From NCBI GenBank assembly GCA_944359735.1, contig CALVTA010000001.1, forward strand, positions 1 to 43,384: DNA of 43,384 nucleotides, in the 5' to 3' direction. Position numbers and translations under genes: made by a program. Source of the stretch: an uncultured Bacilli bacterium (lineage in GTDB: Bacteria > Bacillota_I > Bacilli_A > RF39 > UBA660). Shown here one piece after another: positions 331-25,559 of the stretch (position 1 is its first letter; each line of letters begins with the position of its first letter). The notes below the pieces were generated by a model. That model was not told the DNA's origin. It ran no database searches and saw nothing but the letters and a program-made list of their open reading frames with translations.

Positions 331-1860
331 ATGATATTAAGGAAGCCATATGCTCTTTTAATTCAATACTTTCAAAGGATACATTTAGTTTTAATATTTT
401 TGTGTGCATATATATTTTATAAAATACTTGGATTACGTAGTTTTGTAGCAGATTTTTTAAATACAGAAAGTTATAATGCTTATTATGAACCTATAAGTGA
501 TCATATAAACTTTTTAGTGATTATTTCTATAATTGTTGTTATAGTAATGAGTGTAGTTTTAATAGTGCTTTTAAGATATAAAAAGAAGCCATGGAAAATT
601 TACTTAGTACCGATATTTGAATATGTCTTTATGTTAGGTGTTTTAATATATGTTAGAAGTTATTTTAATGGCTATGATGAAATGTCAACAATTACGGCAA
701 TAATGGCAGGAAGGGATTTATTAAATATTGTTTCTTTGCCTCAATATGTAGTATTTATTATTTTTGGTATTAGATTTTTAGGTATCGATCTAAAAAAGTT
801 TGGTTTTAAAGAAGATGAGGAATATTTAGACATAAAAGAAGAAGATCGTGAAGAGTTTGAAGTAAATATTGAATTCGATAAAGATAAGATTACAAGAAAT
901 ATTAAGAAATTTATTAGAAATGTTAAATATGTTTATTTTGAACATCGACTTGTTTGTAATGTGATTATAGGAATTTTGTTTATTTCTATTACAGGATATA
1001 CATATTATTATTTTGGTGTTTTACATAGAACATATCAGGAAGGTAATATATTTTCTGCTAATTATTATGATATAAAAGTTAATAATAGTTATTTGACTAA
1101 TAGAGATAGTCAAGGTACTGTTATTAGTAATAATTATAATTATTTAGTTGTTAATGTTACTGTCAAAAATAAATCTTCTAAAAGGAAAATTAATTTAGAT
1201 CGTTTTAGAGTAATGAATAAAGATAATGAATATCATTATGTTACTAAAGAATATGATAATTTTAAAGACTTGGGGAAAGAGTACAATAATAAAGAATTAG
1301 ATATGAATGCAGAAACAACATTTATTTTAGTTTATAAAGTTCCTAGTGATTTAAATGTTAGTAAGTTTGTTTTGTATTATCCAGATGTTACTAATGGTGT
1401 TTTATTGAAAAAAACTAAATTAAATACAAAAGATGTAAGAGAACTTGAGACAAAAGAAGAAGTGAAAATAACAGAAAAATTATCTTTTCCTGATAAAAAT
1501 ACTTTGACTATTACAGATTTTAATATAACAAATGAGACTACTTATAGTCGATATGCTTGTAATGATTATGGTTGTACTACTATGGAATTGCCTTTAAAAT
1601 CTGATAATAAAATTTTAGTGATTTCTTTTATAAGTAATAATTTTACAGGTAAAAGTTTTGTTGACTTTTCTAATATATATGCTAAAATTAGATATGAAGA
1701 TAATAATGGCAAGATGCACAATATAAAACCTTCTTCTTTGGTTAGTGATTATAATGGAAATTATGCATATTTTAGTTTACCTACTAATGTTAAGGAAAAT
1801 GGAAGGATAGATATGATATTTACTTTTAGAAATGAACGGTATATTTATCATTTGAATTAA
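331..1860 (+). CDS. polytopic membrane protein with large extracytoplasmic beta-rich C-terminal region (DUF4352-like?)
   Basis: 509-aa ORF with RBS AAAGGGG 8 nt before the ATG. About 5 N-terminal hydrophobic helices, an acidic linker (EDEEYLDIKEEDREEFE) and one more TM (LVCNVIIGILFISITGYTYYYF). Then about 270 aa rich in N/K/Y with the strand pattern NYLVVNVTVKNKSSKRKINLDRFRV. Family call is from memory only. Confidence 0.55.
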   Translation: MILRKPYALLIQYFQRIHLVLIFLCAYIFYKILGLRSFVADFLNTESYNAYYEPISDHINFLVIISIIVVIVMSVVLIVLLRYKKKPWKIYLVPIFEYVFMLGVLIYVRSYFNGYDEMSTITAIMAGRDLLNIVSLPQYVVFIIFGIRFLGIDLKKFGFKEDEEYLDIKEEDREEFEVNIEFDKDKITRNIKKFIRNVKYVYFEHRLVCNVIIGILFISITGYTYYYFGVLHRTYQEGNIFSANYYDIKVNNSYLTNRDSQGTVISNNYNYLVVNVTVKNKSSKRKINLDRFRVMNKDNEYHYVTKEYDNFKDLGKEYNNKELDMNAETTFILVYKVPSDLNVSKFVLYYPDVTNGVLLKKTKLNTKDVRELETKEEVKITEKLSFPDKNTLTITDFNITNETTYSRYACNDYGCTTMELPLKSDNKILVISFISNNFTGKSFVDFSNIYAKIRYEDNNGKMHNIKPSSLVSDYNGNYAYFSLPTNVKENGRIDMIFTFRNERYIYHLN

Positions 1861-1872
1861 GGAGCGAAGATT

Positions 1873-3717
1873 ATGAATAATAAAAAAATGAAATTTGATA
1901 AGAAAAAAATAATTAGAATTGTTTCTTTAATTATTATAGTAGTTGCTGTTATTTTATTGGTTTGGTTTCTTTTCCTTTATCCACGTAAAGTTTTTAGGGA
2001 TAATGAACGTATGCTTAGTGAAGCAGGAGAAAGATATTATGAGATTAATAATACTCGTCTTCCTAAAGAGGAAGGTCGGGTTATTTCTGTTTCTTTAAAT
2101 ACTTTGATAAAGCAAGAGTATTTGGAAGGTTTATATGAAGCTTATGGAAATAAGTTATGTGATTTAAATGAATCTAATGTTAAGGCTGTAAATAAGAATG
2201 GTAATTATGAATATTATACTTATTTAAAATGTGGTAATTATGAATCAGATGTTGATCACGAAGGACCTGTGATTACTTTGAATGGTGATAAAAATATTAC
2301 TGTTAGTATGGGATCTGAATATAATGAACCTGGGGTTAAAAGTGTTAAGGATGATAGTGATGGTAGTATTGATGTTTCAAAGGTATCTATTAAAGGCGAT
2401 GTTGATACTTCAAAAGTTGGTACATATGAAATAACTTATACAGTTAGAGATAGTCTTGATAATAGGACAGATGTTGTTAGAAAAGTTAAGGTTGAACAGA
2501 GATTGGCTAGTGTAGTTAGAGAGAATACAGAAGATGGTTATTATGTTGGGCAAGCTATTAATAATTATATATTGTTTAATAATATGCTTTTTAGGATTGT
2601 TCGTGTTAATGATGATAATAGTGTAGTTATTGTTAGTGATGATGCTCTTGCTAGTGTAGATTATACTAATGATGGTAGATTTGCTAATAGCGCTTTAGAT
2701 AAATGGTTAAATGAATATTTTTATGGTTTGTTAGAACCTCGATATCAAGAGTTAGTAAAATCTAGTAAGTGGTGTGATGATGTTTTAGATAAAGAGACTG
2801 CTTCTACTATAAAAGAGTGTAGTAGGCAAACACCAGAAAGGAAAGTAGGTATTTTGTCATTACAAGATTATAATCTTAGCTATAATGGTATAAGTAGTTA
2901 TCTTAATAAAACTAATCTTACTTGGTATTCTAATTTTGCTAGTGACAATGAAGCTTGGTCTATAACATCAACAGGAGCTTATCCAAATTCTGGTCTTGTG
3001 GCTACGGAAAAGTCAAGTTTGTTAAATGTAGTTCCTGCTTTAGCATTGAAAGCTTCAACTTCTGTTTTAGCTGGTGATGGGTCTATTACAAATCCTTATC
3101 TTGTACTTGATACAAATATAGCTAAAAAAAGTAGTGAACTTAATAAAAGAGAGATAGGGGAATATATTAATTATTCAGGTTATACATTTAGAATTAGTAA
3201 TATATTAGATGACGGTACTGTTGAAGTTATTATGGAGTCTGTATTGAAATCTGATGGGGAACAGGTTAATATTGGTTATACTAATACTCAAAAACAAAAA
3301 GTTTATAATCCTAATCAAGAAGGAAATATTGGTTATAAAATTAAAAATGATATGACTAGATATATTAATACAGATTTATTTGTTAGGAAGACGATAAGTG
3401 TACCTATATACGATGAAAAAATTACGTATCAGGGTGAAAAAAATGTTAAAAAATACAAACTTTTAGTGACAATTCCGTCAACTTTTGATATATTTAGTGC
3501 AAGACCTAATAATGTTAGTGATTCTGGTTATTGGTTAATTGATTCTTCAAAAGCAGAAAATATTAAAGCTATAGTTAGATCTTTGGGGACTGTAACTTAT
3601 GTAATTGCTTCAGATGATTCAACGGCTGGAGTGAAACTCAAAGCATACTTTGATAAGGATACTTTGATAAGAAATGGAAGTGGTACTTTTGGAGATCCAT
3701 ATACGCTTATTGATTAA
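1873..3717 (+). CDS. membrane-anchored surface protein with Ig-like (DUF5011-type) domain
   Basis: RBS AAGGAG. N-terminal K-rich stretch plus TM (IIRIVSLIIIVVAVILLVWFLFLY). GPVITLNGDKNITVSMGSEYNEPGVKSVKDDSDGSIDVSKVSIKGDVDTSKVGTYEITYTVRDSLDNRTDVVRKVKV fits the DUF5011/HYR-like Ig signature. About 350 aa at the C-terminus are unassigned. No C-terminal sorting signal. Confidence 0.7.
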   Translation: MNNKKMKFDKKKIIRIVSLIIIVVAVILLVWFLFLYPRKVFRDNERMLSEAGERYYEINNTRLPKEEGRVISVSLNTLIKQEYLEGLYEAYGNKLCDLNESNVKAVNKNGNYEYYTYLKCGNYESDVDHEGPVITLNGDKNITVSMGSEYNEPGVKSVKDDSDGSIDVSKVSIKGDVDTSKVGTYEITYTVRDSLDNRTDVVRKVKVEQRLASVVRENTEDGYYVGQAINNYILFNNMLFRIVRVNDDNSVVIVSDDALASVDYTNDGRFANSALDKWLNEYFYGLLEPRYQELVKSSKWCDDVLDKETASTIKECSRQTPERKVGILSLQDYNLSYNGISSYLNKTNLTWYSNFASDNEAWSITSTGAYPNSGLVATEKSSLLNVVPALALKASTSVLAGDGSITNPYLVLDTNIAKKSSELNKREIGEYINYSGYTFRISNILDDGTVEVIMESVLKSDGEQVNIGYTNTQKQKVYNPNQEGNIGYKIKNDMTRYINTDLFVRKTISVPIYDEKITYQGEKNVKKYKLLVTIPSTFDIFSARPNNVSDSGYWLIDSSKAENIKAIVRSLGTVTYVIASDDSTAGVKLKAYFDKDTLIRNGSGTFGDPYTLID

Positions 3718-3732: not shown

Positions 3733-4518
3733 ATGAAAGGGAAAAAGAAGTTGTATTTGATTTTTGGAGTTATCATAATTTTTGTAGCAGCTTGCATACT
3801 TTTCTTATATCAAAACATGAGTAAAACAAGTGATTTTACAATTAAAGATGAGAGCTCCAAAATAGAAAATGCTAAAAAATATGGTGATGATGTAGTTGGC
3901 TGGCTGAGAGTTGAAGGTACTAATATTGATTTGCCTTTAATTGCTAGAAATAATGTTGCAGATGTTTCGAGGAGAGATTATGAATTTGCTTGGACTAATT
4001 CTTTTCCTGATGAAAAGAGTAATCATTTTACCTTTATATCTCACAATATAAGAAATGTTTCAAGTAATCCTATTGTTGGTGATGATAGTATGACTTATTT
4101 TGAACAACTAATGTCATTTATCTATCCTGATTTTGTTGAGGAAAATCAATTTGTTGAGTTTACTGATTCTTCTGGTGAAACGGTAATCTATCGTATATAT
4201 GGAATTACTTTAATTGATGAAGGTCAGTCTTTGTCATATTATGATACTTTTACTAAGAAAGAGTTGAGGGAGTATATTAAAAAGGCTAAAGATGAGAGTA
4301 TGTATGATATGGATGTAGAAGTTTCAGATGATGATAGACTGTTGACTTTATATACATGTACGAGGTTTTATGGCTCTACTGACAGTTATTCATTTAGAGT
4401 AGATGCTAGAAAACTACGGGAGGGTGAGAAAATGAAGTATTCTATGGTTGAAACAAATGAAAATTATGCTAAAATAGCAGAAAAAATGGAAGAAGGTGAA
4501 AGTAATGAAGAAGTCTAG
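3733..4518 (+). CDS. sortase-family transpeptidase (class B-like)
   Basis: N-terminal TM. VGWLRVEGTNIDLPLI (SrtB-type N-terminal motif), His in FISHNI, catalytic TLYTCT (TLxTC) and Arg in FRVDARKL. Confidence 0.8.
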   Translation: MKGKKKLYLIFGVIIIFVAACILFLYQNMSKTSDFTIKDESSKIENAKKYGDDVVGWLRVEGTNIDLPLIARNNVADVSRRDYEFAWTNSFPDEKSNHFTFISHNIRNVSSNPIVGDDSMTYFEQLMSFIYPDFVEENQFVEFTDSSGETVIYRIYGITLIDEGQSLSYYDTFTKKELREYIKKAKDESMYDMDVEVSDDDRLLTLYTCTRFYGSTDSYSFRVDARKLREGEKMKYSMVETNENYAKIAEKMEEGESNEEV

Positions 4519-7309
4519 ATTATTATTAATTCCTTTAGTTGGTGTTGCAGCTGGTTTGGGTGTTTTACTGTCTAACACAAACAATGTTGAAGCTGCTAAT
4601 AATCAAACTTGTTCATCTGATTATTTTAAAAGTTTGATGGAGAATAATATTAGTGTAACTGTTAGTTCAGGTGGAGTAAATGTCACAAATAATACAGGAA
4701 TTAATTTAAAATACACTTTCTTTGCTGATGGTAGTAATCGTGGTTCTGGGGCTAATTTAGATGCTGGTGATACTGCGTCTTTAGGAGCTACATCAGGTGG
4801 ATATATAGAGTTGGTTTTAAATCAAGATTTAAAAGATCCTTGTATAGCTAGTACTGATGATGTGCTTGGTAGGGTAGAATTTAATACAGATGGACTTATT
4901 GATAATCCTTTGTATAATGATACAATTTGTGTTAACTACCGTAATAGATGGGGCAATGATCAAATAATGAAAAATGCGGTTCCATACTGTTATAGCCCGC
5001 AAACGTATAGTACGTATTCTGTTGATCAAGTTCAGACTTGGATAAATACAGCGGAATCTCTATATTCTAGTGCAAGTTCTCCTGATGATTCTGAATTTGA
5101 AGTTGATAAGTCATATAAAAGAGTAGAAGATGTTACTAAAATTGATCCTTTAGTATGTGATGCTTTTAGTAATAATAATTATGAAACTATGCACAAGTAT
5201 TCTTATAAGAAAGTAACGACTGAAGGTGATTGTAAAACTACTTGTCAAGAAAAGATTGAGGTTAATTTCAGTGATCCTGTTGAAGTTCAAGCTGGTTTAT
5301 GTTTCGAATATTTAATTGAAATAAAGTCTAAGGTGGAATGTAAGTCTAAATATAAAGCGGCACCACCAACTAGAAAAACTGTTTGTTATCCTACTCCTGT
5401 TTGTATAGGTATTGGAAAGAGTGGTACACAAATTTCTACTGATGCTGGTGGTCCTAATGAAGATTTTGATGCTTGTGTTCTTAGTTGTGATGGTGGTGAA
5501 TATTCTCAAAAGTGTATAGATAAATGTTATAACAAAGTTTATAAAAACAAAAAATCTACTAAGAAAGTATCTAATGAAAATAAATTAACTAAAGATGAGT
5601 TGAAAGCACTTAGTCCTTTAGTAGCACTTAACGATAGCTTTTATGAGGCTGTTAAAGTTAATAATAAGTGTAGTTTATATTCTATTGAGTCTATTAGAGC
5701 TGGTCTTATAAGTGCTGAGGACTTGTATAATTATAGACAACAAGATCCTGGTGGTTATTATAGTGCAGCTGGTTGGACTCGATCTAGTAGTGATGATACA
5801 GATAGTTGTCCTAGTGATTTAGGACCTTATTATTTCAGAAGTTTAGATCAAACTGTTAAAACTATTGCTATGATTCAAGGTACTTATAAATATAATCAAA
5901 GTAATTTGTATTATAATGCTATTGCTGGAATCTTAATGGCAGTACATGCTGATGGTACTTATTGTACGGATTATTGTTATTGGTCAGGTTCTTGTGGAAC
6001 TGATACGGTGTTAACTGAAGCTCAAGCTCAGGCTGAATATGAAAAAGAGCTTGAAGAATATATGAAAGCTAAAGCAGCGTGTGAACAATCGTCTAAATCT
6101 TGTAATACTGCTACTACGGAATATGAAATTATTGTAGATAATGCTGATAATGATAATGATACTAAAGATGATAAAGAGACATTCTCTTCTTATCAAAAAT
6201 TAAATAGTAATAAAGTTCAAGGTGATTTTCCTGATATGGTTACTCTTACTAGTGGTAAATGCGAAGGTAATGAAGATGGTTGGTGGTATCATAATATAAT
6301 TACTTTTCCTGGTACTTGGATAAATAATAAAACAGGTCAAAGTATTCATACTATGGATCCAGGTTATGAAGATTTTTATACTGCCGTAGGGCATGAATTT
6401 TGTACAAAAATAAATTCTGTTCCTGTTAATACAGCTTGGTATTATTGGAAAGTAAACCAAGAAGGTAATCCTGATGCTTTAACTGATAAGGAAAAACAGG
6501 AAATTGAAGAAAATATTGATATGAATATTCATGGTAAGATAGAAAATTATGGACAATTTGGTTGGGATTTTGATATAGAGTGTTTCTATGCTATTGGTGA
6601 ACCTGAGCAAGATCCTCCAAGTCCTTCTGATCCAGATCCAGATCCTAGTGATCCTCCAGGTGATGGGGATGGTGAGGGTAGTAGCGAATCACCAGTAAAT
6701 GATTATGAATTTAGATCTATTGCTTTAGATAATTTATTTCCTAATAGTGTTACTCCAACTAGTTCTATTGATAATAGTAAAGATATAATTGCTTCTAATT
6801 TAATAAATGAAGTTGAGAGTTTGAGAAATAATAATGTTACTACTATTGCTGATCCTGATACTAGAGAACTTGGATTTAATTGGACTTGTGGTGCGACTAA
6901 TCTGGAAAATCCTGATTATATAGTTCAGCCAGTATCACTTATTAATGATATTCAACTTTTAGGTGATAGTATTTATGATGGTGATTATTATTTAGATTAT
7001 CATATTAGATTGACTCCTGAGACGATGAATATAGTTCGAAAATATAATAAAGATAACGGAAATAATTATGCAGCACCTACAGATGTTAAAAAAGGTGGTA
7101 TTTCAACTGCTGGAGTTGATAAAACAGCTGGTGTTACAGTTTATAAAAGCTATTTACTTCATAACGAAATTCGTTCCTCTTTGCTTAAGAGTGGACTTAT
7201 AGGATGTAATAATGAAGAAGATGGTGAATGTAAAAATACTATTGATACTTCTACTAGTTGTTATAATGAATATATGGCTGAAAGTGCTGTATTGAAGGGA
7301 GTTGAATAG
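4505..7309 (+). CDS. large secreted cysteine-rich protein (possible adhesin or tip factor)
   Basis: The ORF track starts at GTG 4496. ATG 4505 lies 5 nt after AAGGTGA and overlaps the sortase stop. Signal peptide MKKSRLLLIPLVGVAAGLGVLLSNTNNVEA/AN. I count 29 Cys. Pro/Asp linker EPEQDPPSPSDPDPDPSDPPGDGDGEG. No LPXTG or NPxTN motif and no C-terminal TM. Confidence 0.7.
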   Translation: MKKSRLLLIPLVGVAAGLGVLLSNTNNVEAANNQTCSSDYFKSLMENNISVTVSSGGVNVTNNTGINLKYTFFADGSNRGSGANLDAGDTASLGATSGGYIELVLNQDLKDPCIASTDDVLGRVEFNTDGLIDNPLYNDTICVNYRNRWGNDQIMKNAVPYCYSPQTYSTYSVDQVQTWINTAESLYSSASSPDDSEFEVDKSYKRVEDVTKIDPLVCDAFSNNNYETMHKYSYKKVTTEGDCKTTCQEKIEVNFSDPVEVQAGLCFEYLIEIKSKVECKSKYKAAPPTRKTVCYPTPVCIGIGKSGTQISTDAGGPNEDFDACVLSCDGGEYSQKCIDKCYNKVYKNKKSTKKVSNENKLTKDELKALSPLVALNDSFYEAVKVNNKCSLYSIESIRAGLISAEDLYNYRQQDPGGYYSAAGWTRSSSDDTDSCPSDLGPYYFRSLDQTVKTIAMIQGTYKYNQSNLYYNAIAGILMAVHADGTYCTDYCYWSGSCGTDTVLTEAQAQAEYEKELEEYMKAKAACEQSSKSCNTATTEYEIIVDNADNDNDTKDDKETFSSYQKLNSNKVQGDFPDMVTLTSGKCEGNEDGWWYHNIITFPGTWINNKTGQSIHTMDPGYEDFYTAVGHEFCTKINSVPVNTAWYYWKVNQEGNPDALTDKEKQEIEENIDMNIHGKIENYGQFGWDFDIECFYAIGEPEQDPPSPSDPDPDPSDPPGDGDGEGSSESPVNDYEFRSIALDNLFPNSVTPTSSIDNSKDIIASNLINEVESLRNNNVTTIADPDTRELGFNWTCGATNLENPDYIVQPVSLINDIQLLGDSIYDGDYYLDYHIRLTPETMNIVRKYNKDNGNNYAAPTDVKKGGISTAGVDKTAGVTVYKSYLLHNEIRSSLLKSGLIGCNNEEDGECKNTIDTSTSCYNEYMAESAVLKGVE

Positions 7310-7311: not shown

Positions 7312-7773
7312 ATGAGTAAAGCAATGTTAGTTCTTGGTATTATTCTTTTAGCAATTATTACCTTTGGTATTGTTAATATTGTTCAAAATTATCAAACTGG
7401 AAACGAACTTGATTATTATTTACTTAAAGAAACGACTGAAGCGGCAATGACTGATGCAGTAGATGTTGGTTATTACCGCTTAAGCGGTCTACTTAGAATT
7501 GATAAAGAAAAATTCGTAGAAAGTTTTGTTAGACGTTTTGCTCAAAATGTATCTAATAGTCGTACTTATGATATTGGATTTTATGATATTAATGAAACAC
7601 CACCAAAAGTTAGTGTTCTAGTTAGATCAGAAACAGTCGCAACTGTTAATGGTGAATCTTTGGGTTTGTCTAATAGAATTGATGTTATTTTAGAAACTAA
7701 ATATCATACTAATAAACTTGTTACTGAAATGATTAGATCTGGTAAATTAGATTATAGCGAAGTTGATGAATAA
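7312..7773 (+). CDS. small N-terminally anchored protein (possible minor-pilin or TadF-like accessory)
   Basis: Starts 2 nt after the preceding stop. Single N-terminal hydrophobic helix (AMLVLGIILLAIITFGIVNIV) followed by about 125 soluble aa. The call rests on position next to cpaB only. Confidence 0.4.
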   Translation: MSKAMLVLGIILLAIITFGIVNIVQNYQTGNELDYYLLKETTEAAMTDAVDVGYYRLSGLLRIDKEKFVESFVRRFAQNVSNSRTYDIGFYDINETPPKVSVLVRSETVATVNGESLGLSNRIDVILETKYHTNKLVTEMIRSGKLDYSEVDE

Positions 7774-8615: not shown

Positions 8616-8633
8616 TAAAAAGGGGTGAATATA

Positions 8634-15046: not shown

Positions 15047-15082
15047 AATAAAAAATAAAGATGTGAAAGAGAAGTGAGATTC

Positions 15083-17174: not shown

Positions 17175-17504
17175 ATGAATGATAATTATTTGATACCTGC
17201 TAATACCAAAAGTGGTAGTCTTATTCTTGGTATTTTTAAACCTTTTGATTTAATTTTGTTAGGAACTGGAGTTTTGTTTTCTTTAATTCTTTTGATGTCT
17301 CTTTCTATGAATTATACTTGGCAAGTTATACTTGTTGTTACTCCAGGTTTACTTAGTGCTTTTCTTGTTATTCCAATTCCTAATTATCATAATGTTTTAA
17401 CTATAATTATAGAATGTTATAATTTCTTTACTAATAGAAGAAGTTATATTTGGAAAGGTTGGTGTGTTAAAGATGTCAAAGATGTCAAGAAGAGTAGTAA
17501 GTAG
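17175..17504 (+). CDS. PrgI/VirB3-like small membrane protein
   Basis: 109 aa with two TM helices. N-terminus LIPANTKSGSLILGIFKPFDLILLGTGVLF resembles PrgI-family proteins. Lies immediately upstream of VirB4. Confidence 0.6.
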   Translation: MNDNYLIPANTKSGSLILGIFKPFDLILLGTGVLFSLILLMSLSMNYTWQVILVVTPGLLSAFLVIPIPNYHNVLTIIIECYNFFTNRRSYIWKGWCVKDVKDVKKSSK

Positions 17505-18033: not shown

Positions 18034-19820
18034 GTATAAGTATTAAAAGCCAATTAGCACCTAAGGGATTACATTTTAATCCAAGTGATTTCTTTATTAG
18101 TGATAAGTATGCAACTATTCTTTCTGTTATTTCTTATCCGCGATATATTTCTCCTGGGTATTTATCAACTCTAACATCTATGAGTGGTATTAAAATTGTT
18201 ATAAAGCATATACCTGTTCCTTTTTCTACTATGTCTAAAATGATTAATAGACAAATTGCTGATTTGAGAGAAAAATATAGACAAGAAAAAGATCAAACTG
18301 CTAAAGAGAGAATTAGACAAGATGCTGAAAGTCTCGAATATTTTGTTTCGATGCTTGCTTCAAGTCAATCTAGAATTTTTGATTTTCAAATGCATATTAT
18401 GATAAATGCTGATACTAAAGAAGATCTTGAATTGAAAAAGGTTAATGTTAAGAATTATTTAGATGCTATGGAACTTAGAGCGGTTTCACTTAGGTTTGAA
18501 CAAGAGAAGGTTTTAAAAAGTATTTTACCAATATTTCCTAGTCAAGATATAGAAGAAAGGATTGGTACTCCTATTCCAACTCCTACTATTGCTGCTATGT
18601 ATCCTTTTATCTTTGATAGTATTAAAGATCCTGGTCTTTCTGTTTTGCTCGGTGTTGATTTTTCAGGTGGGGTTATTTTGTTTAATCAATTTCTTTATCA
18701 AACAAGAAAAGAAAATAATAGAAATAATGCTAATATGATTATACTTGGTACATCTGGATCTGGTAAATCAACTGCTGCTAAACTTTTGCTTAGATCTCAT
18801 ATTAGAAATGGTTGTCAGATAGTAGCGATCGATCCTGAAAATGAGTTAGAAGAGATGACGAAAACTTTTGGAGGAGATATCATTGATATTGGTAAAGGTG
18901 GAGAATTTGGAATGATTAATCCACTTGAAGTTATTATTGATGCTGATGATGAAGAAATTTCGCAAGGATTAGGTTATACTGTTTTGACTCGAACTTTACA
19001 GTCTCTTAGAGCTTTCATGAAATATTATGATCCATCTATTGAAGAGGATGTTCTTAATATGTTTAGTGAGATTGTTCAAGATACTTATAAACGTTTTGGA
19101 ATAGATTTTAATACTGATTTTTCAAAGTTTACATCAGCAGATTATCCGACTTTTTCTGATGTTTATGCTACTATTAAAGGTAGACTTATGTCTTTGACAG
19201 AACAGACTAGAGAAAAAGATATTATTCAGAGATTAGAGCTTAAAATAAGACCGTTAATAAAAGAATTAAAATTTTATTTTGATGGTAAGACTACTATAAC
19301 TGCAGATAGTGATTTTATGGTCTTTAATATTAAAGAGTTTATGAATTCTGATACTAATATTAGAAATGCTTTATTCTTTAATATTTTAAAATATGCTTGG
19401 GGACTTTGCCTTGATGTTGATGTTAATACAATATTAATGGTTGATGAAGCTCATGTATTACTTGGTACAAATAATGAACAAGGGGCTGATTTCTTAGCTC
19501 AAGTTCAAAGACGTGCTCGTAAATATAATACAGGTACTATTATAATTACTCAGCAGCCTAGTGATTTTTCATCTGCTTCTATTATTACTCAAGGAAAAGC
19601 TATTTTTGATAATTCTTCATATTATTTGGTTATGGGACTTAGAAAACAGGCAGTGGAGGACTTGTCATTACTTATAGATCTAAATGAAAATGAAAAAGAT
19701 AGTATTAAGCGTTATTCTCAAGGAGAAGCACTATTTGTATGTGGTAATAGACGTATGAGAATAAATGTAGTAGTTACTCAAGAAGAACTGGAATCATTTG
19801 GTTCAGGTGGAGGTTTTTAG
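18030..19820 (+). CDS. virB4: VirB4-family conjugal transfer ATPase (C-terminal two thirds)
   Basis: Walker A ILGTSGSGKSTAAK, Walker B ILMVDEAHVLL and IIITQQPSDF. N-terminal APKGLHFNPSDFFISDKYATILSVISYPRYISPGYL matches the VirB4 middle domain. Confidence 0.85.
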   Translation: MSISIKSQLAPKGLHFNPSDFFISDKYATILSVISYPRYISPGYLSTLTSMSGIKIVIKHIPVPFSTMSKMINRQIADLREKYRQEKDQTAKERIRQDAESLEYFVSMLASSQSRIFDFQMHIMINADTKEDLELKKVNVKNYLDAMELRAVSLRFEQEKVLKSILPIFPSQDIEERIGTPIPTPTIAAMYPFIFDSIKDPGLSVLLGVDFSGGVILFNQFLYQTRKENNRNNANMIILGTSGSGKSTAAKLLLRSHIRNGCQIVAIDPENELEEMTKTFGGDIIDIGKGGEFGMINPLEVIIDADDEEISQGLGYTVLTRTLQSLRAFMKYYDPSIEEDVLNMFSEIVQDTYKRFGIDFNTDFSKFTSADYPTFSDVYATIKGRLMSLTEQTREKDIIQRLELKIRPLIKELKFYFDGKTTITADSDFMVFNIKEFMNSDTNIRNALFFNILKYAWGLCLDVDVNTILMVDEAHVLLGTNNEQGADFLAQVQRRARKYNTGTIIITQQPSDFSSASIITQGKAIFDNSSYYLVMGLRKQAVEDLSLLIDLNENEKDSIKRYSQGEALFVCGNRRMRINVVVTQEELESFGSGGGF

Positions 19821-19854
19821 TATTTAATATTTAAATAGTTGTGGTAAGGTGGTG

Positions 19855-22164
19855 ATGAAAGTGGAAGAAGAAAAAAAAGAAAAAGGGCAGGATAATAATT
19901 CTGGAACTGATAATGCAAATAAGAAAACTAATTCTTCTGATTCATCATTTTTAGGTAAAGCGATAGAGAAATATAGGAGTAATAGAAGGAGTAAAAAAGG
20001 ATTTGATGATGATAGTGGTGATACTACTAATCCTGATATTGATGCTTCTCCTGTAAAAAAAAATATTTCTAATGGTAAAAATGGACTTGAAAGATCTATT
20101 GCTAATAAGGCATTAAATGCTGGAGCTAAAGTTAGTCCAACTTTACGAACTTTAAAAACTGTTAATAATATTAAAAATGGAATTAATGGAGTTAGAACTA
20201 GAAGAAATATGACAGGGGCTGCTCCTTCAGGGGGATCCGTTGGTGGTCTTTTGCGTGATGATAATAATGATAATAAAGAAGTTGATAGAACTAACAATGT
20301 AGGTGATGTTACTTCTTCAGATAATGTTGTTAATGAAGATTCTAGTAGTGAAGGCGGTAATTTTTTAAGTTCTCTATTAGGAGGTAAAAAAAGTAAAGGT
20401 TTAGCTGGTTCTTTTAATATTTTTGGAAGATTTTCAATTAAAAGTAAAATTTTTTCGGTTATACTTGGAGTTTTTGTTTCTTTGTTTATAATTTTACTTC
20501 CCGTTATTTTAATTGTTCTTGTATTTAGTCCTCTTTTGGGACAAAGTGAAGCTTCTGCTAATGAAGGAGATGTATCATATGATGCAGGACAATCTGCTTA
20601 TTATCAAAGAGTTGAGGATGTAAAAAAAAGTTATTCTGAAGAAGAAAAAGAATTTTCGGAAATAGTCATTACTGCTGCTTTTACAGTATTACAGGTAAAT
20701 GTTCCATCTTTTACTTTTGCTGATATGACAGAGTCACGAATTAGAGAGGTTGCTGATTTAATGCTTGAAGAATCTGAAAATGAAGATGGTACTATTACGT
20801 ATACGGCTAAAGGTGAAGATGATGTCAAAGAAGCATTAGCTGCTTATTTTAAAAGTATTGATTCTAGCCTAAGTGATGATACATGTAAAAGAATGGCTGA
20901 TGATGTATTTAGTTATGTTGAAGCTTATCAAGAATTTACAAGTGATGAAGAACAATCTAGTAATGTTGCATCTTCATGTGAGGGTAATTCATATTGGTGG
21001 CCAATTGGTAGTATTGATACTACTACATCAAATGGAGTTACTTTTGCTAGTGGTGATCCAGAGCCTTCTTCATTAACTGCTTATTTTGCTGGTGCGGATA
21101 GTGTTCATAGAGGTAATCATGGAGCGATTGATATTTCTACTAGTAGTGGTGTAGGTGTTACTAATGTAATTGCTGCTCAATCTGGTACAGTTATATATCC
21201 TACTAGTGATGATCAAACAAGGTATGATGATAATGGTAGTCTTAATAATAGCGATGGTGGAGGTTATGGTAATTATGTTATTATAGAACATTCTGATGGT
21301 AATTATACTTACTATGCACATATGGCTAAAAATAGTATTACTGTTAGAGCGGGTGATACGGTTAGACAAGGACAAGTTATCGGTAAAATGGGACATTCTG
21401 GTAGATCAACAGGGGCACATTTACATTTTGAAGTTAGAGTTGGTGGTAATACTAGTGCTAATAAAGTAGATCCACTTGATTATGTTAGTATTGATGATCC
21501 TAGATCTGGATGTGCTGATTTTTCTCTAACAAGTACTTCTCTTTCAAAACAGGAATTTATCTCTAAGATGGAGGCATATTGTACTAGTAGTGGTAATAGT
21601 GACTTTTGTACTAATTTTGCTGATCATGCGGCTGAAATTTATGATGTATCAATAGATTCAGGTGTTAATCCCGAACTTGTTGTTGTAACAGCAGGAACTG
21701 AACAAAATTGGGCTAAATGTCAGGATCTTTATAATTATTGGGGGATTGATATTTCAAATGGTCAAGGTTGTTATGATGGTCCTATTTTAAGATCTCTTGC
21801 TGATGGAATTCGTGAATATGCTTCTACATTAGATAACTATCAACCTGGTGGTAGTAATGCTGCTTTAATAGAATCACGAAATCAAGAAAGAGAAGCGGCA
21901 GGATGTGATCCAGCAGGACATGGTCCTCCAGGGACTTTAGCAGGAATGCAGTCTGTATATTCTTGGCTTGGTGATTATCGTTATAATCCTGGTGATTCAG
22001 GTTTGGGTGGATGTTATTATTTAAACGTAATGTATGGTGAAGACTATTGTAGTAGAGTTCCATCTGGTAGTGATGTTCCTACTACGGTATGTGAACAGAA
22101 TGATTATACTAAATGGCAAATTGAGAAAAAAGTGTATCTTAGAAAGGCTATATTTGGTTTATAG
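19855..22164 (+). CDS. bifunctional cell-wall hydrolase (M23 peptidase plus glucosaminidase/lysozyme-like), VirB1 analogue
   Basis: ATG 19855 (the track starts at GTG 19849). About 190 aa of K/N/S/G-rich disordered N-terminus and a TM (IFSVILGVFVSLFIILLPVILIVLVF). M23 motifs HRGNHGAIDI, GGGYGNYVIIEH and HSGRSTGAHLHFEV. C-terminal AAEIYDVSIDSGVNPELVVVTAGTEQNW...YNYWGI is glucosaminidase-like. Confidence 0.8.
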   Translation: MKVEEEKKEKGQDNNSGTDNANKKTNSSDSSFLGKAIEKYRSNRRSKKGFDDDSGDTTNPDIDASPVKKNISNGKNGLERSIANKALNAGAKVSPTLRTLKTVNNIKNGINGVRTRRNMTGAAPSGGSVGGLLRDDNNDNKEVDRTNNVGDVTSSDNVVNEDSSSEGGNFLSSLLGGKKSKGLAGSFNIFGRFSIKSKIFSVILGVFVSLFIILLPVILIVLVFSPLLGQSEASANEGDVSYDAGQSAYYQRVEDVKKSYSEEEKEFSEIVITAAFTVLQVNVPSFTFADMTESRIREVADLMLEESENEDGTITYTAKGEDDVKEALAAYFKSIDSSLSDDTCKRMADDVFSYVEAYQEFTSDEEQSSNVASSCEGNSYWWPIGSIDTTTSNGVTFASGDPEPSSLTAYFAGADSVHRGNHGAIDISTSSGVGVTNVIAAQSGTVIYPTSDDQTRYDDNGSLNNSDGGGYGNYVIIEHSDGNYTYYAHMAKNSITVRAGDTVRQGQVIGKMGHSGRSTGAHLHFEVRVGGNTSANKVDPLDYVSIDDPRSGCADFSLTSTSLSKQEFISKMEAYCTSSGNSDFCTNFADHAAEIYDVSIDSGVNPELVVVTAGTEQNWAKCQDLYNYWGIDISNGQGCYDGPILRSLADGIREYASTLDNYQPGGSNAALIESRNQEREAAGCDPAGHGPPGTLAGMQSVYSWLGDYRYNPGDSGLGGCYYLNVMYGEDYCSRVPSGSDVPTTVCEQNDYTKWQIEKKVYLRKAIFGL

Positions 22165-22323: not shown

Positions 22324-22851
22324 ATGAATAAAACAGAAAAAGTTGAAATTACGATAGTTGTTATATTAATAGTATTTTTTTGTGGTACTCTGATCTATTC
22401 TAAAGTTGTTCAGAAAAATGTAGATGATAATAAAATTGATACTACTGTTTTTGCCTTAAATGATGTAAATAGGTTTTTCTCTATTGATTCATCTATTTCC
22501 AAATATGTATCTTATGTATCTAATAAAGATGTTGATAATATTATTAAAGTTTTAGATAAAAATTATAAAGAAAATAATAATATTTCTAGTAGTAATGTTT
22601 TTGATTTTGTTGGTAATTATAATATAGGTTATATTAGTAGTACTAGAGAGATATATCAAGTTAGTTCTAATAATAATATTTATAAATATTATGCTAAAGT
22701 AAGATTATTAGAGGAAACTTTTGATTCTTCTACTTTTATAGATAATGCTTATTTTGAGGTTACTATTAATGAAAATGAACTTACGTTTGCAATTGCGCCG
22801 ATTAGTGAAATTGTATATATGAATAAAATAAAGGAGGCTACTAATGGTTAA
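22324..22851 (+). CDS. small bitopic protein (VirB8/TcpC-like candidate)
   Basis: N-terminal TM (VEITIVVILIVFFCGTLIY) plus a domain of about 140 aa. Placed between the hydrolase and the coupling protein. Function inferred from architecture only. Confidence 0.4.
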   Translation: MNKTEKVEITIVVILIVFFCGTLIYSKVVQKNVDDNKIDTTVFALNDVNRFFSIDSSISKYVSYVSNKDVDNIIKVLDKNYKENNNISSSNVFDFVGNYNIGYISSTREIYQVSSNNNIYKYYAKVRLLEETFDSSTFIDNAYFEVTINENELTFAIAPISEIVYMNKIKEATNG

Positions 22852-23302
22852 AACTTTTAAAATAATAATATTTATTTTGTTAGTAGTTTTGTTTAGTTTT
22901 CTGATCTTTAGGAATTTTAGAAATGTTGATGAAGTGGTAAGGATGTTACCTACAGTGGAAGAATTAGATAAATATAATTCTGTTTCTATTAAGAATGAGG
23001 CTAATATATATGAACTTAAAGATATTAGTGACAAACAATTAATTACAATTTACTATACAGATTTTAAAAATGAAGTTTTTAATTATCCAGAAGAAATTTA
23101 TCAAAAAATAAGAAATAAGGATGAAATAACTTATGAGATATTTAGTAATTTTAGAAATGAATTAATTAATAATTATTATACTAATAAGGTTGAAGATTAT
23201 AAAATTGTTGATCAAGAATATACAATTGAGAATAATTATAATCAAAAAATAATTTTTTATGTGGATTCAGTTTTAAATTATGAAATTAAACTAATATTAT
23301 AA
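22844..23302 (+). CDS. small bitopic protein, unknown function
   Basis: RBS AAGGAGG 7 nt upstream. Overlaps the previous stop by 8 nt. N-terminal TM (FKIIIFILLVVLFSFLIF). Confidence 0.4.
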   Translation: MVKTFKIIIFILLVVLFSFLIFRNFRNVDEVVRMLPTVEELDKYNSVSIKNEANIYELKDISDKQLITIYYTDFKNEVFNYPEEIYQKIRNKDEITYEIFSNFRNELINNYYTNKVEDYKIVDQEYTIENNYNQKIIFYVDSVLNYEIKLIL

Positions 23303-23337: not shown

Positions 23338-23366
23338 AAGCGTAGATTTTGAAATGAGGGATTTTC

Positions 23367-25559
23367 ATGAAGTTAAAGTTTAGAGCTGATAAAGATGATG
23401 TTATGATATTTGCTGTTTTTGCTTTGTTTTTACTTTATATTGTAGCGATTGGTATTGTTAATTTAAATTCTTTTGCAACTGAAGGATATTTTAGTGGTCT
23501 TAATCCTTTTCCGGCATTTACACCTAAGTTTTTATGGATGACTTTAATTATTTATTTTGTATCGTTAATAGGAATGTTTGTTAGTGTAAAATCTTATTTT
23601 TTTGAAGTAGAAAAAGGTTTTGGTTTTACTACTGAAAAGAAAGATAAAGGATATTCTAGGTGGGCTAAGGATAAAGAGATTAAACAAGAACTTACTATGG
23701 TTACTCCACAACAAGAAACTAGTAATGCAGCAGGTGTTCCTTTGATTTTGAAAGATAATGAAGCTTGGGTTGATAATGGTGAATATCATACTTTAGTTAT
23801 TGGTTCTACTGGTTCTGGTAAGACACAAACTGTTATTAAGCCTACTGTTAAATTACTTGCTAAAGCAGGAGAATCAATGATTATTACCGATCCTAAGGGT
23901 GAGATTTATGAAGCGACTGCTAATATGCTTAAAAGTAAAGGATATGATGTTCAAATATTAAATTTCCGTGATCCTCAAAATGGTAGTAGTTGGAATCCAT
24001 TGTCTTTACCTTATAGAATGTATAAGAGTGGTAATCAGGATAAGGCTATTGAGTTATTAGATGATTTAGCTTTAAATATTCTTTATGATGAGTCTAGTAA
24101 TAATAGTGACCCATTTTGGGAGAAAACTTCTGCTGATTATTTTTCAGGTGTAGCATTAGGACTTTTTGAAGATGCTAAAGAAGATGAAATTAATATTAAT
24201 AGTATTAGTTTAATGACTACAGTAGGGGAAGAGAAGTTTGGTGGTACTACTTATATTAAGGAATATTTCTCTTTTAAAGATCCAGCAGGGGCTGCTTCTA
24301 TTAATGCATCTAGTACAATTAATGCTCCAACTGATACAAAGGGATCAATTTTATCTGTGTTTAGACAGAAGATTAAATTATTTGCATCACGTGAGAATTT
24401 ATCAGAGATGTTAAGTCATAACAATATTGATCTTGCTGATATTGGTAAGCGTAAGACAGCTTTATTTATCGTGGTTCAAGATGAAAAGAAAACTTATCAC
24501 TCCCTTGTTACAATTCTTTTAAAGCAATGTTATGAAACTTTAATAGATGTAGCTCAAGAAAATGGTGGTGAACTTCCTGTTAGAACAAACTTCTTACTAG
24601 ATGAGTTTGCAAATATGCCACCTTTAAAGGATGTTACAACTATGATTACAGCAGCTCGTTCTCGTAAGATTAGATTTACAATGATTATTCAAAACTATGC
24701 ACAATTAAATCAAGTATATGGTAAAGAAAATGCTGAAACTATTCGTGGTAACTGTGGTAATATTATTTATTTGATTTCAGCTGAACTTGCAGCATTAGAA
24801 GAAATTTCTAAAATGTGTGGTGAGGTTAAATCTAAGGATAATGATAAAACTGCTAGTACTCCTCTTGTTACAGTTTCTGATTTGCAAAGAATGAAGCAAT
24901 TTGAAGTTATTGTTTTAAGAATGAGACAACAGCCTTTTAAGACTAAATTTACGCCAGATTTTAAACTTAATTGGGGTAAAGATTATCCTAAAGCTACATA
25001 TCCAGTTAGGGATAAAATACCTGTTCATACTTTTGATATAAAGACTTTTGTTAAAGAAAAGAAAAAAGAAAAGTTGCTTGAAATGATGAATAGTTCTAAT
25101 CCTAATGGAGGTAATACTTCGTCTGGATCTGGATTTGTTCCTCCTAATTTATTTGGAATAGGTGCTGGAAATAGTAATAATCAGGGATTTTCTAATCCTA
25201 TGTTTACGGGTAATAATAATGGTCCAATGTCAATGCCTTCTGATATGCCAGGAATGATGCCTAATTTTAATCCAGATTTATCAAAAAATAATATTCAACC
25301 TAAGAAACCAACATTTGATGTTGATGAGTTGGTTAAGAAGATTGATGCTAAAATTGCTGAACTTGAAAAAGAAGAACAAATGAATAAGCAAAAACATCAG
25401 GAAACTCTTGTTAAACCTTTAGAAGATTCTTCTGTTAAAGAAGTTGTGGATAATAAGAAAGAAGATCCTGTTGTTAAAGAACAGCCTAAAAAAGAAGTTA
25501 ATTTAAGTTTAGATGATGATGACGATGATGATTTCTTTGATGATTTTTTCGATGAATAA
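23367..25559 (+). CDS. virD4: type IV coupling protein (VirD4/TraG family)
   Basis: Two N-terminal TMs. Walker A VIGSTGSGKTQT, ITDPKGE, Walker B NFLLDEFANMP and MIIQNYAQL. Low-complexity C-terminus ending DDDDDDDFFDDFFDE. Confidence 0.85.
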   Translation: MKLKFRADKDDVMIFAVFALFLLYIVAIGIVNLNSFATEGYFSGLNPFPAFTPKFLWMTLIIYFVSLIGMFVSVKSYFFEVEKGFGFTTEKKDKGYSRWAKDKEIKQELTMVTPQQETSNAAGVPLILKDNEAWVDNGEYHTLVIGSTGSGKTQTVIKPTVKLLAKAGESMIITDPKGEIYEATANMLKSKGYDVQILNFRDPQNGSSWNPLSLPYRMYKSGNQDKAIELLDDLALNILYDESSNNSDPFWEKTSADYFSGVALGLFEDAKEDEININSISLMTTVGEEKFGGTTYIKEYFSFKDPAGAASINASSTINAPTDTKGSILSVFRQKIKLFASRENLSEMLSHNNIDLADIGKRKTALFIVVQDEKKTYHSLVTILLKQCYETLIDVAQENGGELPVRTNFLLDEFANMPPLKDVTTMITAARSRKIRFTMIIQNYAQLNQVYGKENAETIRGNCGNIIYLISAELAALEEISKMCGEVKSKDNDKTASTPLVTVSDLQRMKQFEVIVLRMRQQPFKTKFTPDFKLNWGKDYPKATYPVRDKIPVHTFDIKTFVKEKKKEKLLEMMNSSNPNGGNTSSGSGFVPPNLFGIGAGNSNNQGFSNPMFTGNNNGPMSMPSDMPGMMPNFNPDLSKNNIQPKKPTFDVDELVKKIDAKIAELEKEEQMNKQKHQETLVKPLEDSSVKEVVDNKKEDPVVKEQPKKEVNLSLDDDDDDDFFDDFFDE

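Follow-up and report, generated by a model that had tools for sequence, protein, structure and literature searches.

The stretch of DNA analysed here (the window) comprises 43,384 nucleotides of contig CALVTA010000001.1 (assembly GCA_944359735.1) from an uncultured Bacilli bacterium, and harbours between positions 331 and 25559 a locus in which the genes of a monoderm type IV secretion system (T4SS) are joined to a set of genes resembling those of Tad/Flp pili. The list of open reading frames (ORFs) of the window gives 22 ORFs in a row, all on the + strand, with intergenic distances ranging from -41 to +159 nt, in agreement with the closely packed, co-directional gene train reported in an initial annotation of this DNA. 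Four pairs overlap, namely genes 3/4 (-23 nt with a GTG start; an alternative ATG start lies at 4505), genes 16/17 (-41 nt; alternative ATG start at 17473), genes 17/18 (ATGA, 18030-18033) and genes 20/21 (-8 nt). The G+C content of the window is about 28%, and the locus shows neither a G+C shift nor a compositional break. The Tad-like half consists of the following genes:

Gene 6, 7794..8615, + strand: CpaB/RcpC-like bitopic protein with an N-terminal transmembrane (TM) helix and SAF/RcpC-like domains (three libraries, sub-threshold).
Gene 7, 8625..9863, + strand: hexameric secretion ATPase of the T2SSE superfamily, in the clade of the pLS20 p37 and pXO2 ATPases (Pfam, neighbour-joining tree).
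Gene 8, 9880..10773, + strand: very diverged platform protein of the inner membrane, TadB-like and corresponding to pLS20 gene 38 (hhalign, fold).
Gene 9, 10776..11555, + strand: second platform protein, TadC-like, weakly paralogous to gene 8 and corresponding to pLS20 gene 39 (hhalign).
Gene 10, 11628..11777, + strand: 49-aa pilin-like protein of Flp size (short polar leader, hydrophobic helix).
Gene 11, 11842..12291, + strand: 149-aa minor-pilin-like protein, counterpart of pLS20 gene 40 (leader, hydrophobic helix, globular domain).
Gene 12, 12309..13289, + strand: cytoplasmic protein of two domains, the N-terminal one receiver-like and the other P-loop-like with a degenerate Walker A motif (AlphaFold2 model).

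The ATPase encoded by gene 7 matches Pfam T2SSE (1.9e-28) and carries the motifs GETGSGKTE, ITIEDTLEL, RQNPKWILLSEVR and STIHA within 8625-9863; these, like all other motifs quoted in the initial annotation, were recovered in the genes named there. The nominally best NCBIfam score is obtained with the VirB11 model (TIGR02788), at 111.6 bits against a cutoff of 249.95, and the model for 'TadA family conjugal transfer-associated' proteins scores about equally, both far below their cutoffs. In the PDB, FlaI (5.5e-20) ranks above CpaF (7.8e-18) and VirB11 (2.8e-13). A neighbour-joining distance tree (16 sequences, 296 columns, 200 bootstraps) was built with three CpaF, three VirB11 and two TrbB references, Gram-positive plasmid ATPases and IncI TraJ as outgroup. 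The gene 7 clade joins the ATPases of pLS20 (p37), pXO2 and a Paraclostridium plasmid at 100% bootstrap, the three CpaF references group at 94% without it, and it is separate from the VirB11 and TrbB references. Because this 100% clade stands apart from both CpaF and VirB11/TrbB, gene 7 is, judged by its sequence, neither a CpaF nor a VirB11 in the strict sense. The assignment to a CpaF/TadA type in the initial annotation is thus borne out as regards the T2SSE superfamily and the distance from VirB11, but the protein falls outside the CpaF clade. Among the examples fetched, T4SS genes are always present alongside an ATPase of this clade.

Gene 6 had been called CpaB-like, and the CpaB/RcpC signals from three libraries are mutually consistent, although every one is sub-threshold: TIGR03177 CpaB at 2.9e-9 (36.5 bits against a cutoff of 71), Pfam RcpC at 1e-5 (25.8 bits against 28.8) and RcpC 9gzr (E 0.18) as the sole PDB match of the family profile. 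With hhalign the protein aligns at 53% probability (E 1.3e-4) to a SAF protein encoded in the canonical Tad cluster that a Mycoplasmatota plasmid carries.

Genes 8 and 9 are alike in a TadB-like membrane layout, consisting of an N-terminal TM helix, a hairpin, a cytoplasmic domain of ~130 aa and C-terminal TM helices. In full-length hhalign comparisons gene 8 reaches pLS20 p38 at 97.5% (E 5.4e-12) and, at 94.8% (E 4.9e-8), the protein that occupies the TadB position in the Mycoplasmatota Tad cluster; the link to p38 appears only with the diverse alignment A2 and is missed by clade-level alignments. The only Pfam match of the bridging TadB-position protein is T2SSF, at E 0.064, and the neighbouring TadC matches T2SSF at 4.9e-8. 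The AlphaFold2 model of gene 8 (pLDDT 83.8) retrieves in Foldseek, as its one specific local match, the cytoplasmic domain of EpsF/GspF (2vmb; probability 0.95, TM-score on the target 0.62, root-mean-square deviation 3.5 A, E 1.5), and an ortholog bears the name 'Flp pilus assembly protein TadB' in the automatic annotation of UniProt/UniRef. The gene 9 family hidden Markov model (HMM) matches pLS20 p39 at 1.7e-4, and by hhalign gene 9 aligns to p39 (79%, E 1.6e-5), to gene 8 (38%, E 3.4e-4) and to the Tad platform alignment (39%, E 3.2e-4).

The two pilin-like proteins have in common a leader of the form M-(K/R)-x-A-x-G followed by a hydrophobic helix, a pattern kept across species. The N-terminus of gene 10, MK(A/E)ATG-ELN(L/M)TV, is near-invariant in ~67 species and precedes the helix and a variable C-terminus; the protein has no family match and no detectable homology to pLS20 p41. 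The leader of gene 11, MRDA(F/I)G(G/Q), is likewise conserved (~70 species for genes 10 and 11), and the protein aligns to p40 at 49.5% (E 1.7e-4). Gene 12 has no sequence match in Pfam, NCBIfam or the PDB. The N-terminal domain of its low-confidence model resembles the receiver 3hdv (probability 0.95, TM-score on the target 0.61), and TadZ itself was not recovered in the structure search with this model; on the modelled architecture, gene 12 is possibly TadZ/CpaE-like. Taken together, the gene sequences suggest a filament half in which a secretion ATPase is accompanied by two platform proteins resembling TadB and TadC, a CpaB-like protein and two pilin-like proteins, one the size of Flp and the other larger; a TadZ-like organiser may also belong to it.

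Directly downstream follow the T4SS genes:

Gene 13, 13339..13740, + strand: two-TM hairpin protein (TM 37-64 and 79-111), weakly VirB2/T4SS_pilin-like.
Gene 14, 13786..15003, + strand: secreted protein of 405 aa, in whose C-terminus the VirB2-like hairpin of gene 13 recurs (loop motif, TM scan).
Gene 15, 15074..17155, + strand: VirB6-like polytopic channel protein (Pfam TrbL_4).
Gene 16, 17175..17504, + strand: small two-TM protein in the VirB3/PrgI position (TM scan; no Pfam match).
Gene 17, 17464..18033, + strand: N-terminal domain of a split VirB4, 189 aa (NCBIfam VirB4_plasma).
Gene 18, 18030..19820, + strand: VirB4 ATPase domain, 596 aa (NCBIfam, Pfam AAA_10, P-loop_TraG).
Gene 19, 19849..22164, + strand: cell-wall hydrolase with an M23 metallopeptidase domain in the VirB1 role (Pfam Peptidase_M23, 2.2e-24).
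Genes 20 and 21, 22324..23302, + strand: bitopic membrane proteins, each with an N-terminal TM helix and a domain of ~130 aa (TM scan).
Gene 22, 23367..25559, + strand: VirD4 type IV coupling protein, ending in an acidic tail of low complexity (Pfam, NCBIfam).

On sequence evidence this half is solid, comprising VirD4, a split VirB4, VirB6, a VirB3-like protein, the M23 hydrolase and weakly VirB2-like proteins. The coupling protein (motifs GSTGSGKTQ, DPKGE and LLDEFANMP within 23367-25559) matches Pfam T4SS-DNA_transf (1.3e-57) and TraG-D_C (1.1e-24) and passes the NCBIfam conju_CD1115 model, with 306.5 bits against a cutoff of 250. Gene 18 (GTSGSGKST and MVDEAHVLL within 18030-19820) matches the NCBIfam model Mbov_0397 at 4e-104 over profile positions 294-893 of 894, and CD1110 at 7.9e-51; gene 17 matches the same VirB4_plasma (Mbov_0397) model at 2.4e-13 over positions 94-276 of 894, both Mbov_0397 matches lying below the equivalog cutoff, and relatives of gene 17 have a weak precomputed Pfam TraC-like match. 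Gene 15 is recognised by Pfam TrbL_4 (1.2e-9, 38.4 bits against a cutoff of 27) and, below the equivalog cutoff, by NCBIfam ICE_Mbov_0396_TM (8.7e-6), and its family HMM matches pLS20 p49 (1.6e-6). The gene 16 family HMM matches (8.7e-7) an ORF of the Mycoplasmatota plasmid that is collinear with gene 16 and lies upstream of VirB4. Gene 13 gives sub-threshold T4SS_pilin matches in three of five orthologs (best 0.0082) and an hhalign signal of 14% (E 1.9e-3) to pLS20 p45; genes 13 and 14 have the loop motif D(D/E)KA(V/M)KEAQ(S/N)KLI in common between two TM helices, and the Mycoplasmatota plasmid encodes a protein of gene 14 architecture with a C-terminal T4SS_pilin match (0.0012). The earlier calls of VirB6, VirB4, VirD4 and an M23 hydrolase are accordingly supported by Pfam and NCBIfam, but the glucosaminidase domain also claimed for gene 19 was found in neither library. 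Genes 20 and 21 are VirB8-like in position and topology only, with no family match in Pfam or NCBIfam; identification as VirB8 was dropped, as no hhalign signal to pLS20 p51 or p53 was obtained. The nearest relatives of the T4SS half are the T4SSs of the Mycoplasmatota plasmid and of Mycoplasma integrative and conjugative elements (ICEs), pLS20 and pXO2 being more distant.

Three details of these T4SS proteins may be added, with comparison loci cited by their handles. The split of VirB4 is kept in the relatives L005, L008, L091 and L093. The position of the hydrolase is occupied in a diverged relative by a CHAP-domain protein (L093:7312-9405) instead of the M23 protein of the window, an exchange of the lytic module at an unchanged position. 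The C-terminus of VirD4 (25200-25559) is a long low-complexity region rich in Asn, Pro and Gly with an acidic tail ending in DDDDDDDFFDDFFDE, and may represent a docking or regulatory extension.

Upstream of both halves the train begins with five genes, which are mainly related to the cell surface:

Gene 1, 331..1860, + strand: polytopic membrane protein with ~5 N-terminal TM helices and a weakly DUF4352-like extracellular domain (TM scan).
Gene 2, 1873..3717, + strand: surface protein anchored in the membrane and carrying a bacterial Ig-like domain; candidate adhesin (Pfam).
Gene 3, 3733..4518, + strand: sortase-like protein, nearest to class B (Pfam, NCBIfam).
Gene 4, 4496..7309, + strand: secreted cysteine-rich protein of 937 aa, a candidate surface or tip protein (signal-peptide-like N-terminus).
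Gene 5, 7312..7773, + strand: DUF5411 protein with one N-terminal TM helix, counterpart of pLS20 gene 36 (Pfam).

The sortase and adhesin-like genes of the initial annotation were retained in part: gene 3 passes Pfam Sortase (28.4 bits against a cutoff of 26.6; class B sortase TIGR03064 at 1.6e-14, sub-cutoff) and gene 2, with one N-terminal TM helix, matches Bact_surface_Ig-like at 6.7e-21, but gene 1 proved polytopic (DUF4352 at E 0.0026, sub-cutoff) and no LPXTG sorting signal occurs in genes 1, 2 or 4, nor was an LPXTG-type substrate seen in the locus. Gene 4 has no family match in Pfam or NCBIfam. Gene 5 matches DUF5411 at 1.2e-49, as does pLS20 p36 at 1.4e-5, and the two align by hhalign with 46% probability (E 2e-4). 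The locus codes for both a class-B-like sortase and a peptidoglycan hydrolase; if the host belongs to the group treated in PMC10868615, the targets of these two enzymes may lie on partner cells.

One genome per GTDB species was scanned, and 80 loci from ~80 species were fetched for comparison. At least 529 GTDB species genomes carry a relative, among them a closed circular chromosome of 1,517,539 bp, and close homologs occur in Candidatus Onthousia and other metagenome-assembled genomes of uncultured gut Bacilli or 'Tenericutes'. Among the 80 loci, practically all that are long enough have genes 1 to 18 in the same order, so that the Tad-like and T4SS halves stay together across ~80 species with no sign of independent gain or loss, which the initial annotation had named as a refuting outcome. 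Identity across the species loci amounts to 70-96% for VirB4 (gene 18) and 64-94% for the ATPase, compared with 23-78% for the surface proteins; among these gene 1 is fast-evolving (29-78%), gene 2 ranges between 31 and 72%, and gene 4 is the most variable gene of the locus (23-59%). The divergence of the Tad-like genes tracks that of VirB4 pairwise (rho 0.56-0.79). A thioredoxin-like upstream gene is conserved in 17 of 23 informative loci, and downstream of VirD4 lie housekeeping genes that vary by species: SepF/DivIVA/RelA in L091, RmuC, a tRNA synthetase and GatCAB in L093, and NAD salvage genes in the window. No relaxase or integrase was detected with Pfam and NCBIfam in the 43-kb window or in the flanks of three relatives (including L091 and L093), and the window yielded IS110 elements only, not an ICE-type DDE recombinase. 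The term 'conjugative' used in the initial annotation was therefore not upheld, given these negatives together with the housekeeping neighbours, the synteny across ~80 species and the closed chromosome. To our knowledge, the Mycoplasma ICEs that are the nearest T4SS relatives also have no recognised relaxase. An unrecognised relaxase does not prove that there is no DNA transfer; by analogy, the pattern suggests a fixed chromosomal organelle, as in Patescibacteria (PMC12102498).

The architecture of the locus is collinear with that of pLS20 (genes 34-54), of pXO2/pAW63 and of a Paraclostridium bifermentans plasmid. The pLS20-type order runs from adhesin genes over the DUF5411 protein p36, the ATPase p37, the polytopic p38 and p39 (~250-300 aa), the pilin-like p40 (~120-150 aa), the tiny TM protein p41, the T4SS_pilin/VirB2-like hairpin p45 and p46 with its C-terminal TM helix to a T4SS part consisting, as in the window, of VirB6, a VirB3-like protein, VirB4, a wall hydrolase and a CD1115-family VirD4. 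Homology to pLS20 was found for the ATPase, p36, p38, p39, p40, VirB6, VirB4 and VirD4, and weakly between p45 and gene 13, with off-diagonal controls of the pairwise hhalign comparison at ~0. The window locus hence shows the marks of the pLS20 type, i.e. a CD1115 VirD4, VirB4, a p028/TrbL_4 VirB6, a wall hydrolase, an ATPase of the p37 clade, and counterparts of p36, p38, p39 and p40 in order. The best tblastn matches of the ATPase to plasmids are likewise the Paraclostridium plasmid and the pLS20 family, although identity is only ~33% and a megablast of 7.3-25.6 kb against plasmids gave no match. Differences from the pLS20 family are also apparent. The latter is plasmid-borne and equipped with a MobL relaxase, oriT (origin of transfer) and regulation genes, whereas the window locus is chromosomal, lineage-fixed and has no nearby relaxase. 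VirD4 ends the train in the window but precedes VirB6 in pLS20, VirB4 is split only in the window, the hydrolase is of the M23 type rather than a lytic transglycosylase/C40 protein, the CpaB-like gene 6 and the two-domain gene 12 are not evident in pLS20, and no homology was detected between p41 and gene 10.

In the published account of the pLS20 family, gene 37 is a 'putative VirB11', genes 38-41 are listed as unknown, and VirB2 and pili are said to be lacking (PMC8557374); the pAW63 literature gives the ATPase ortholog the same name, VirB11. Since pLS20, pXO2, the Paraclostridium plasmid and the Mycoplasmatota plasmid hold the same architecture, the combination of a filament module with a monoderm T4SS is not new, and the belief of the initial annotation that it had not been described fails as to the gene set, present in the published pLS20, pAW63 and pXO2 operons, and stands only in that the ATPase is called VirB11 and its neighbours unknown there. 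A Tad-like reading of the pLS20-type block, that is of pLS20 genes 38-41, was not found in the searchable literature, which is incomplete, nor was any T4SS or pilus found described in RFN20-type gut Bacilli. As a separate observation, pLS20 p45 (L002:14035-14265) passes Pfam T4SS_pilin (1.3e-7, 32.1 bits against a cutoff of 26.6) and pXO2 (L094:19606-19884) carries a gene annotated as 'TrbC/VirB2 family protein', in contrast to the published claims that VirB2 homologs are lacking in these Gram-positive T4SSs. The systems of pCP13 (Pcp) and pCS1 (cst) were considered as closest relatives and dropped, the respective papers listing no VirB11 or Tad genes.

Compared with the Tad/Flp systems of Caulobacter (Cpa) and Aggregatibacter (Tad), the likeness lies in the succession of an ATPase and two platform-like proteins of one domain each, with a bitopic CpaB-like protein encoded upstream, in a tiny protein of major-pilin size next to a larger one that resembles minor pilins, and in what may be an organiser made of a receiver and a P-loop domain; like monoderm Tad systems, the module has no secretin. 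It differs in that the ATPase does not belong to the CpaF clade, the T2SSF model does not recognise the platform-like proteins, the G/XXXXEY motif is missing, and neither a prepilin peptidase, a TadE/F family match nor TadD/RcpA is found, as well as in being embedded in a T4SS. A direct neighbourhood is seen on plasmid CP074574 of Mycoplasmatota bacterium zrk4 (L095:7371-20761), typed 'non-mobilizable', where T4SS genes adjoin a canonical Tad cluster. Its VirB3-like gene, VirB4 N-terminal part and VirB4 are collinear with the window (window VirB4 HMM match 1e-89) and are followed by SAF/CpaB, an AAA_31 ATPase, CpaF, TadB, TadC, two Flp pilins and TadE-like genes. In contrast to the window, this cluster is a canonical one, with T2SSF at 4.9e-8, the Flp motifs G|SPSLEY and G|GVIFEY, and a true CpaF as its ATPase (within the 94% clade); the Tad set stands downstream and not upstream of VirB4, and the carrier is a plasmid. 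CP074574 can be seen as a natural intermediate in which to study how the two machines couple.

Mycoplasma ICEs (Mbov_0396/Mbov_0397) provide the best, though sub-cutoff, NCBIfam matches of genes 15, 17 and 18, the last two together covering 94-893 of 894 positions. The T4SS of Patescibacteria (PMC12102498; review PMC12857230) is similarly of monoderm type with VirB4, VirB6, VirB3, VirD4-like and VirB2-like genes, and is, like the window locus, chromosome-fixed in small-genome uncultured bacteria, relaxase-less and conserved over a large lineage. It belongs, however, to another phylum, has no adjacent secretion-ATPase/platform module described and has been shown experimentally to be essential. 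A precedent for a type IV filament that serves T4SS mating-pair formation, especially in liquid, is offered by IncI R64 and PAPI-1; these differ from the window in their diderm hosts and in a type IVb pilus with PilQ-type ATPase, PilV adhesin and prepilin peptidase, encoded in a separate cluster which is not interleaved with the T4SS.

Gene content, remote homologies, kept contiguity, co-divergence, chromosomal context and the homology to the pLS20-type architecture together favour, with a probability of roughly 60%, the reading that the locus encodes one composite envelope machine, in which a monoderm T4SS is combined with a strongly diverged type IV filament module, and which is chromosomal and vertically inherited. 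Remote homology, fold, topology and context suggest that this module is type IV filament-like, while it fails several Tad-defining tests. The locus is best classed as a variant of the pLS20-type monoderm T4SS that is fixed on the chromosome and in which the 'VirB11 block' is a diverged type IV filament module, and neither as a Tad-family member nor as a demonstrated conjugative element. The earlier proposal of a Tad-like module embedded in a monoderm T4SS is hence sustained as to embedding and co-inheritance, but not as a bona fide Tad/Flp system.

Several results weigh against this reading of the locus. For the two T2SSF-like, the Flp-like, the TadE-like and the TadZ-like proteins of the initial annotation, no window family member matched the corresponding Pfam or NCBIfam models at any threshold. 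In particular, 22 diverse members of the gene 8 family yielded no Pfam match (including T2SSF, PF00482) and no PDB sequence match, the connection of gene 8 to T2SSF is transitive, passing through the bridging protein at E 0.064, proteobacterial TadB alone reaches gene 8 with only 5% probability, and the Foldseek E-value for the EpsF domain is 1.5. Gene 11 and four diverse orthologs have no TadE/Tad match (PF07811/PF13400) at E up to 0.5. Neither pilin-like ORF has the G/XXXXEY motif or an acidic residue at +5, gene 10 being without E-Y at +5/+6 in ~67 species, and no prepilin peptidase (TadV/CpaA, Peptidase_A24) was found among the 42 window ORFs scanned. The model of gene 12, built on a shallow alignment, is of low confidence (pLDDT 57.8), the ATPase tree has a small reference set and deep nodes without support, and the relaxase search covered the window and three flanks with Pfam and NCBIfam rather than a whole genome. 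Filament formation, the coupling of the two halves and the nature of the substrate are inferred.

If the composite machine operates as its gene content would predict, the ATPase would dock on the platform formed by genes 8 and 9 and power the polymerisation of the pilin-like products of genes 10 and 11, giving a short filament or pseudopilus that crosses the envelope. Together with the variable surface proteins (genes 1-4 and 14), the filament might make or stabilise the contact with a partner cell, or else open a path for the T4SS channel. The hydrolase, M23 or CHAP, would cut peptidoglycan, and VirD4 would feed a substrate, DNA or protein, to the VirB4/VirB6 channel.

An alternative explanation for the ATPase block is that it is the equivalent of VirB11 and builds no filament, gene 7 energising the T4SS itself, genes 8 and 9 forming a T4SS inner-membrane scaffold and genes 10 and 11 being small membrane subunits. 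This would agree with the name VirB11 given to the ortholog in the pLS20/pAW63 literature, with the nominally top NCBIfam score, with the failure of all T2SSF, Flp and TadE models, with the lack of a prepilin peptidase in the window and of a canonical cleavage motif, and with the unsupported deep placement of the ATPase clade. Yet the VirB11 score is far under its 250-bit cutoff and is matched by the TadA model, solved FlaI and CpaF outscore VirB11, and the clade is set apart from the VirB11/TrbB references. The full-length alignment of gene 8 to the TadB-position gene of a canonical cluster and its EpsF-like fold, as well as the pilin-like pattern of genes 10 and 11 (conserved leader, hydrophobic helix, variable C-termini), speak further for a filament module, and we know of no VirB11 protein accompanied by two TadB/C-like polytopic partners and a CpaB-like protein. 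A filament-free VirB11 block is considered unlikely, although it is the strongest competitor of the composite machine.

The explanation put forward in the initial annotation, in which the locus is the transfer module of a functional ICE with the Tad-like set as its mating-pair-formation pilus, and with a relaxase that is unrecognised or located elsewhere, is judged improbable. That VirD4 is a true conjugal coupling protein of the CD1115 family, that VirB4 and VirB6 are nearest to Mycoplasma ICE proteins, that the homologous pLS20 and pXO2 operons are conjugative and that IS110 elements lie on both sides in this genome would all be expected of such an element. It is difficult, however, to reconcile with the negative results for relaxase, integrase and ICE-type DDE recombinase in the window and the three flanks, with synteny, vertical-type divergence and a conserved upstream neighbour over ~80 species, with the presence of the locus in at least 529 species genomes of one lineage, with downstream housekeeping neighbours that vary by species and do not travel with it, with its uniform G+C, or with two IS110 copies unrelated in DNA sequence. 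Still harder to defend, and very improbable, is the view that a Tad-like adhesion pilus and a separate T4SS are merely two independent neighbours. Tad loci are normally autonomous, and in some strains a block with an EssC gene sits in the middle of the locus without removing either half; but contiguity and order are kept in ~80 species, the two halves co-diverge, the ATPase clade occurs only alongside T4SS genes among the examples fetched, and the pairing is seen independently on four plasmid types (Bacillus, Paraclostridium, Mycoplasmatota). As pLS20, pXO2, the Paraclostridium and the Mycoplasmatota plasmids all show it, the pairing of filament and T4SS genes is recurrent.

Gram-positive conjugation systems are described in reviews and primary papers as having no pilus and relying on adhesins (PMC8557374, PMC11730352, PMC12102498). 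How donors find recipients in Gram-positive conjugation is a standing question, notably for pLS20. This plasmid mates efficiently in liquid. The present comparison shows that in one widespread class of monoderm T4SS a secretion ATPase is always accompanied by platform-like, CpaB-like and pilin-like proteins as well as by VirB2-like genes, which makes the question testable in a tractable system, through pLS20 genes 36-41 and 45. A more far-reaching and tentative extension, which we regard as possible but more doubtful than the composite machine itself, is that the 'VirB11 + unknown genes' block of pLS20 and pXO2 is a degenerate Tad-related filament machine that builds the missing 'pilus' of monoderm conjugation, and that in the gut Bacilli clade this hybrid became a domesticated chromosomal apparatus that lacks a relaxase and serves as a core organelle by which DNA or protein is exchanged on contact with other cells, in parallel to the essential T4SS of Patescibacteria. 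The host lineage consists of uncultured, small-genome, Mollicutes-related gut bacteria (Candidatus Onthousia and relatives). With the locus fixed in the chromosome in hundreds of species of this reduced-genome lineage and no relaxase found in the window and three flanks, it is, after Patescibacteria, a second candidate case of a conjugation-type machine kept for another, lineage-wide function.

The block mentioned above is a type VII secretion system (T7SS) module nested in the T4SS/Tad-like locus of some strains. Besides four small ORFs (85-106 aa), it contains a T7SSb EssC gene of 1517 aa (TIGR03928, 963 bits against a cutoff of 778), and it lies between the VirB2-like genes and VirB6 at L003:14319-20894 and at the same position in L004; in L005, whose gene 8 protein is identical, it is missing. 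L091, which continues the L003 contig (111 kb), shows that VirB6 to VirD4 resume ~1.5 kb past the block, and EssC is for this reason an insertion; replacement of the T4SS by a T7SS in some strains was ruled out, as VirB6-VirD4 are on the same 111-kb contig. As the insertion entails no loss of either half, strict operon continuity is not required. After VirD4, L091 also encodes at 12970-14733 a HerA-like (DUF87) ATPase of 587 aa, which partially matches anti-phage HerA as well as CedD, the archaeal DNA-import ATPase, and which has no counterpart in the window.

Just upstream of the gene train and outside the machine, one further feature was identified:

1..138, + strand: 3' end of an IS110-family transposase gene, a contig-breaking repeat.

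This gene is cut by the window start, and contigs break there in every assembly of the strain. L006 reaches 503 bp further upstream (its position 504 being window position 1), and its ORF 3-641 matches Pfam Transposase_20 at 7.9e-18. A second IS110-family transposase gene is located at 34045-35247 on the - strand, so that two IS110 genes bracket the region; a composite transposon bounded by them was ruled out, as the two copies have no DNA similarity. The second copy interrupts a compact NAD salvage and biosynthesis cluster (27419-37726) directly downstream of the T4SS, which encodes an isochorismatase/PncA-like protein, NAPRTase, a NUDIX protein, a radical SAM/B12-binding protein, glutamine-dependent NAD synthetase, a NadD-like protein, CinA, an NrtR-type NUDIX regulator and NAD kinase.

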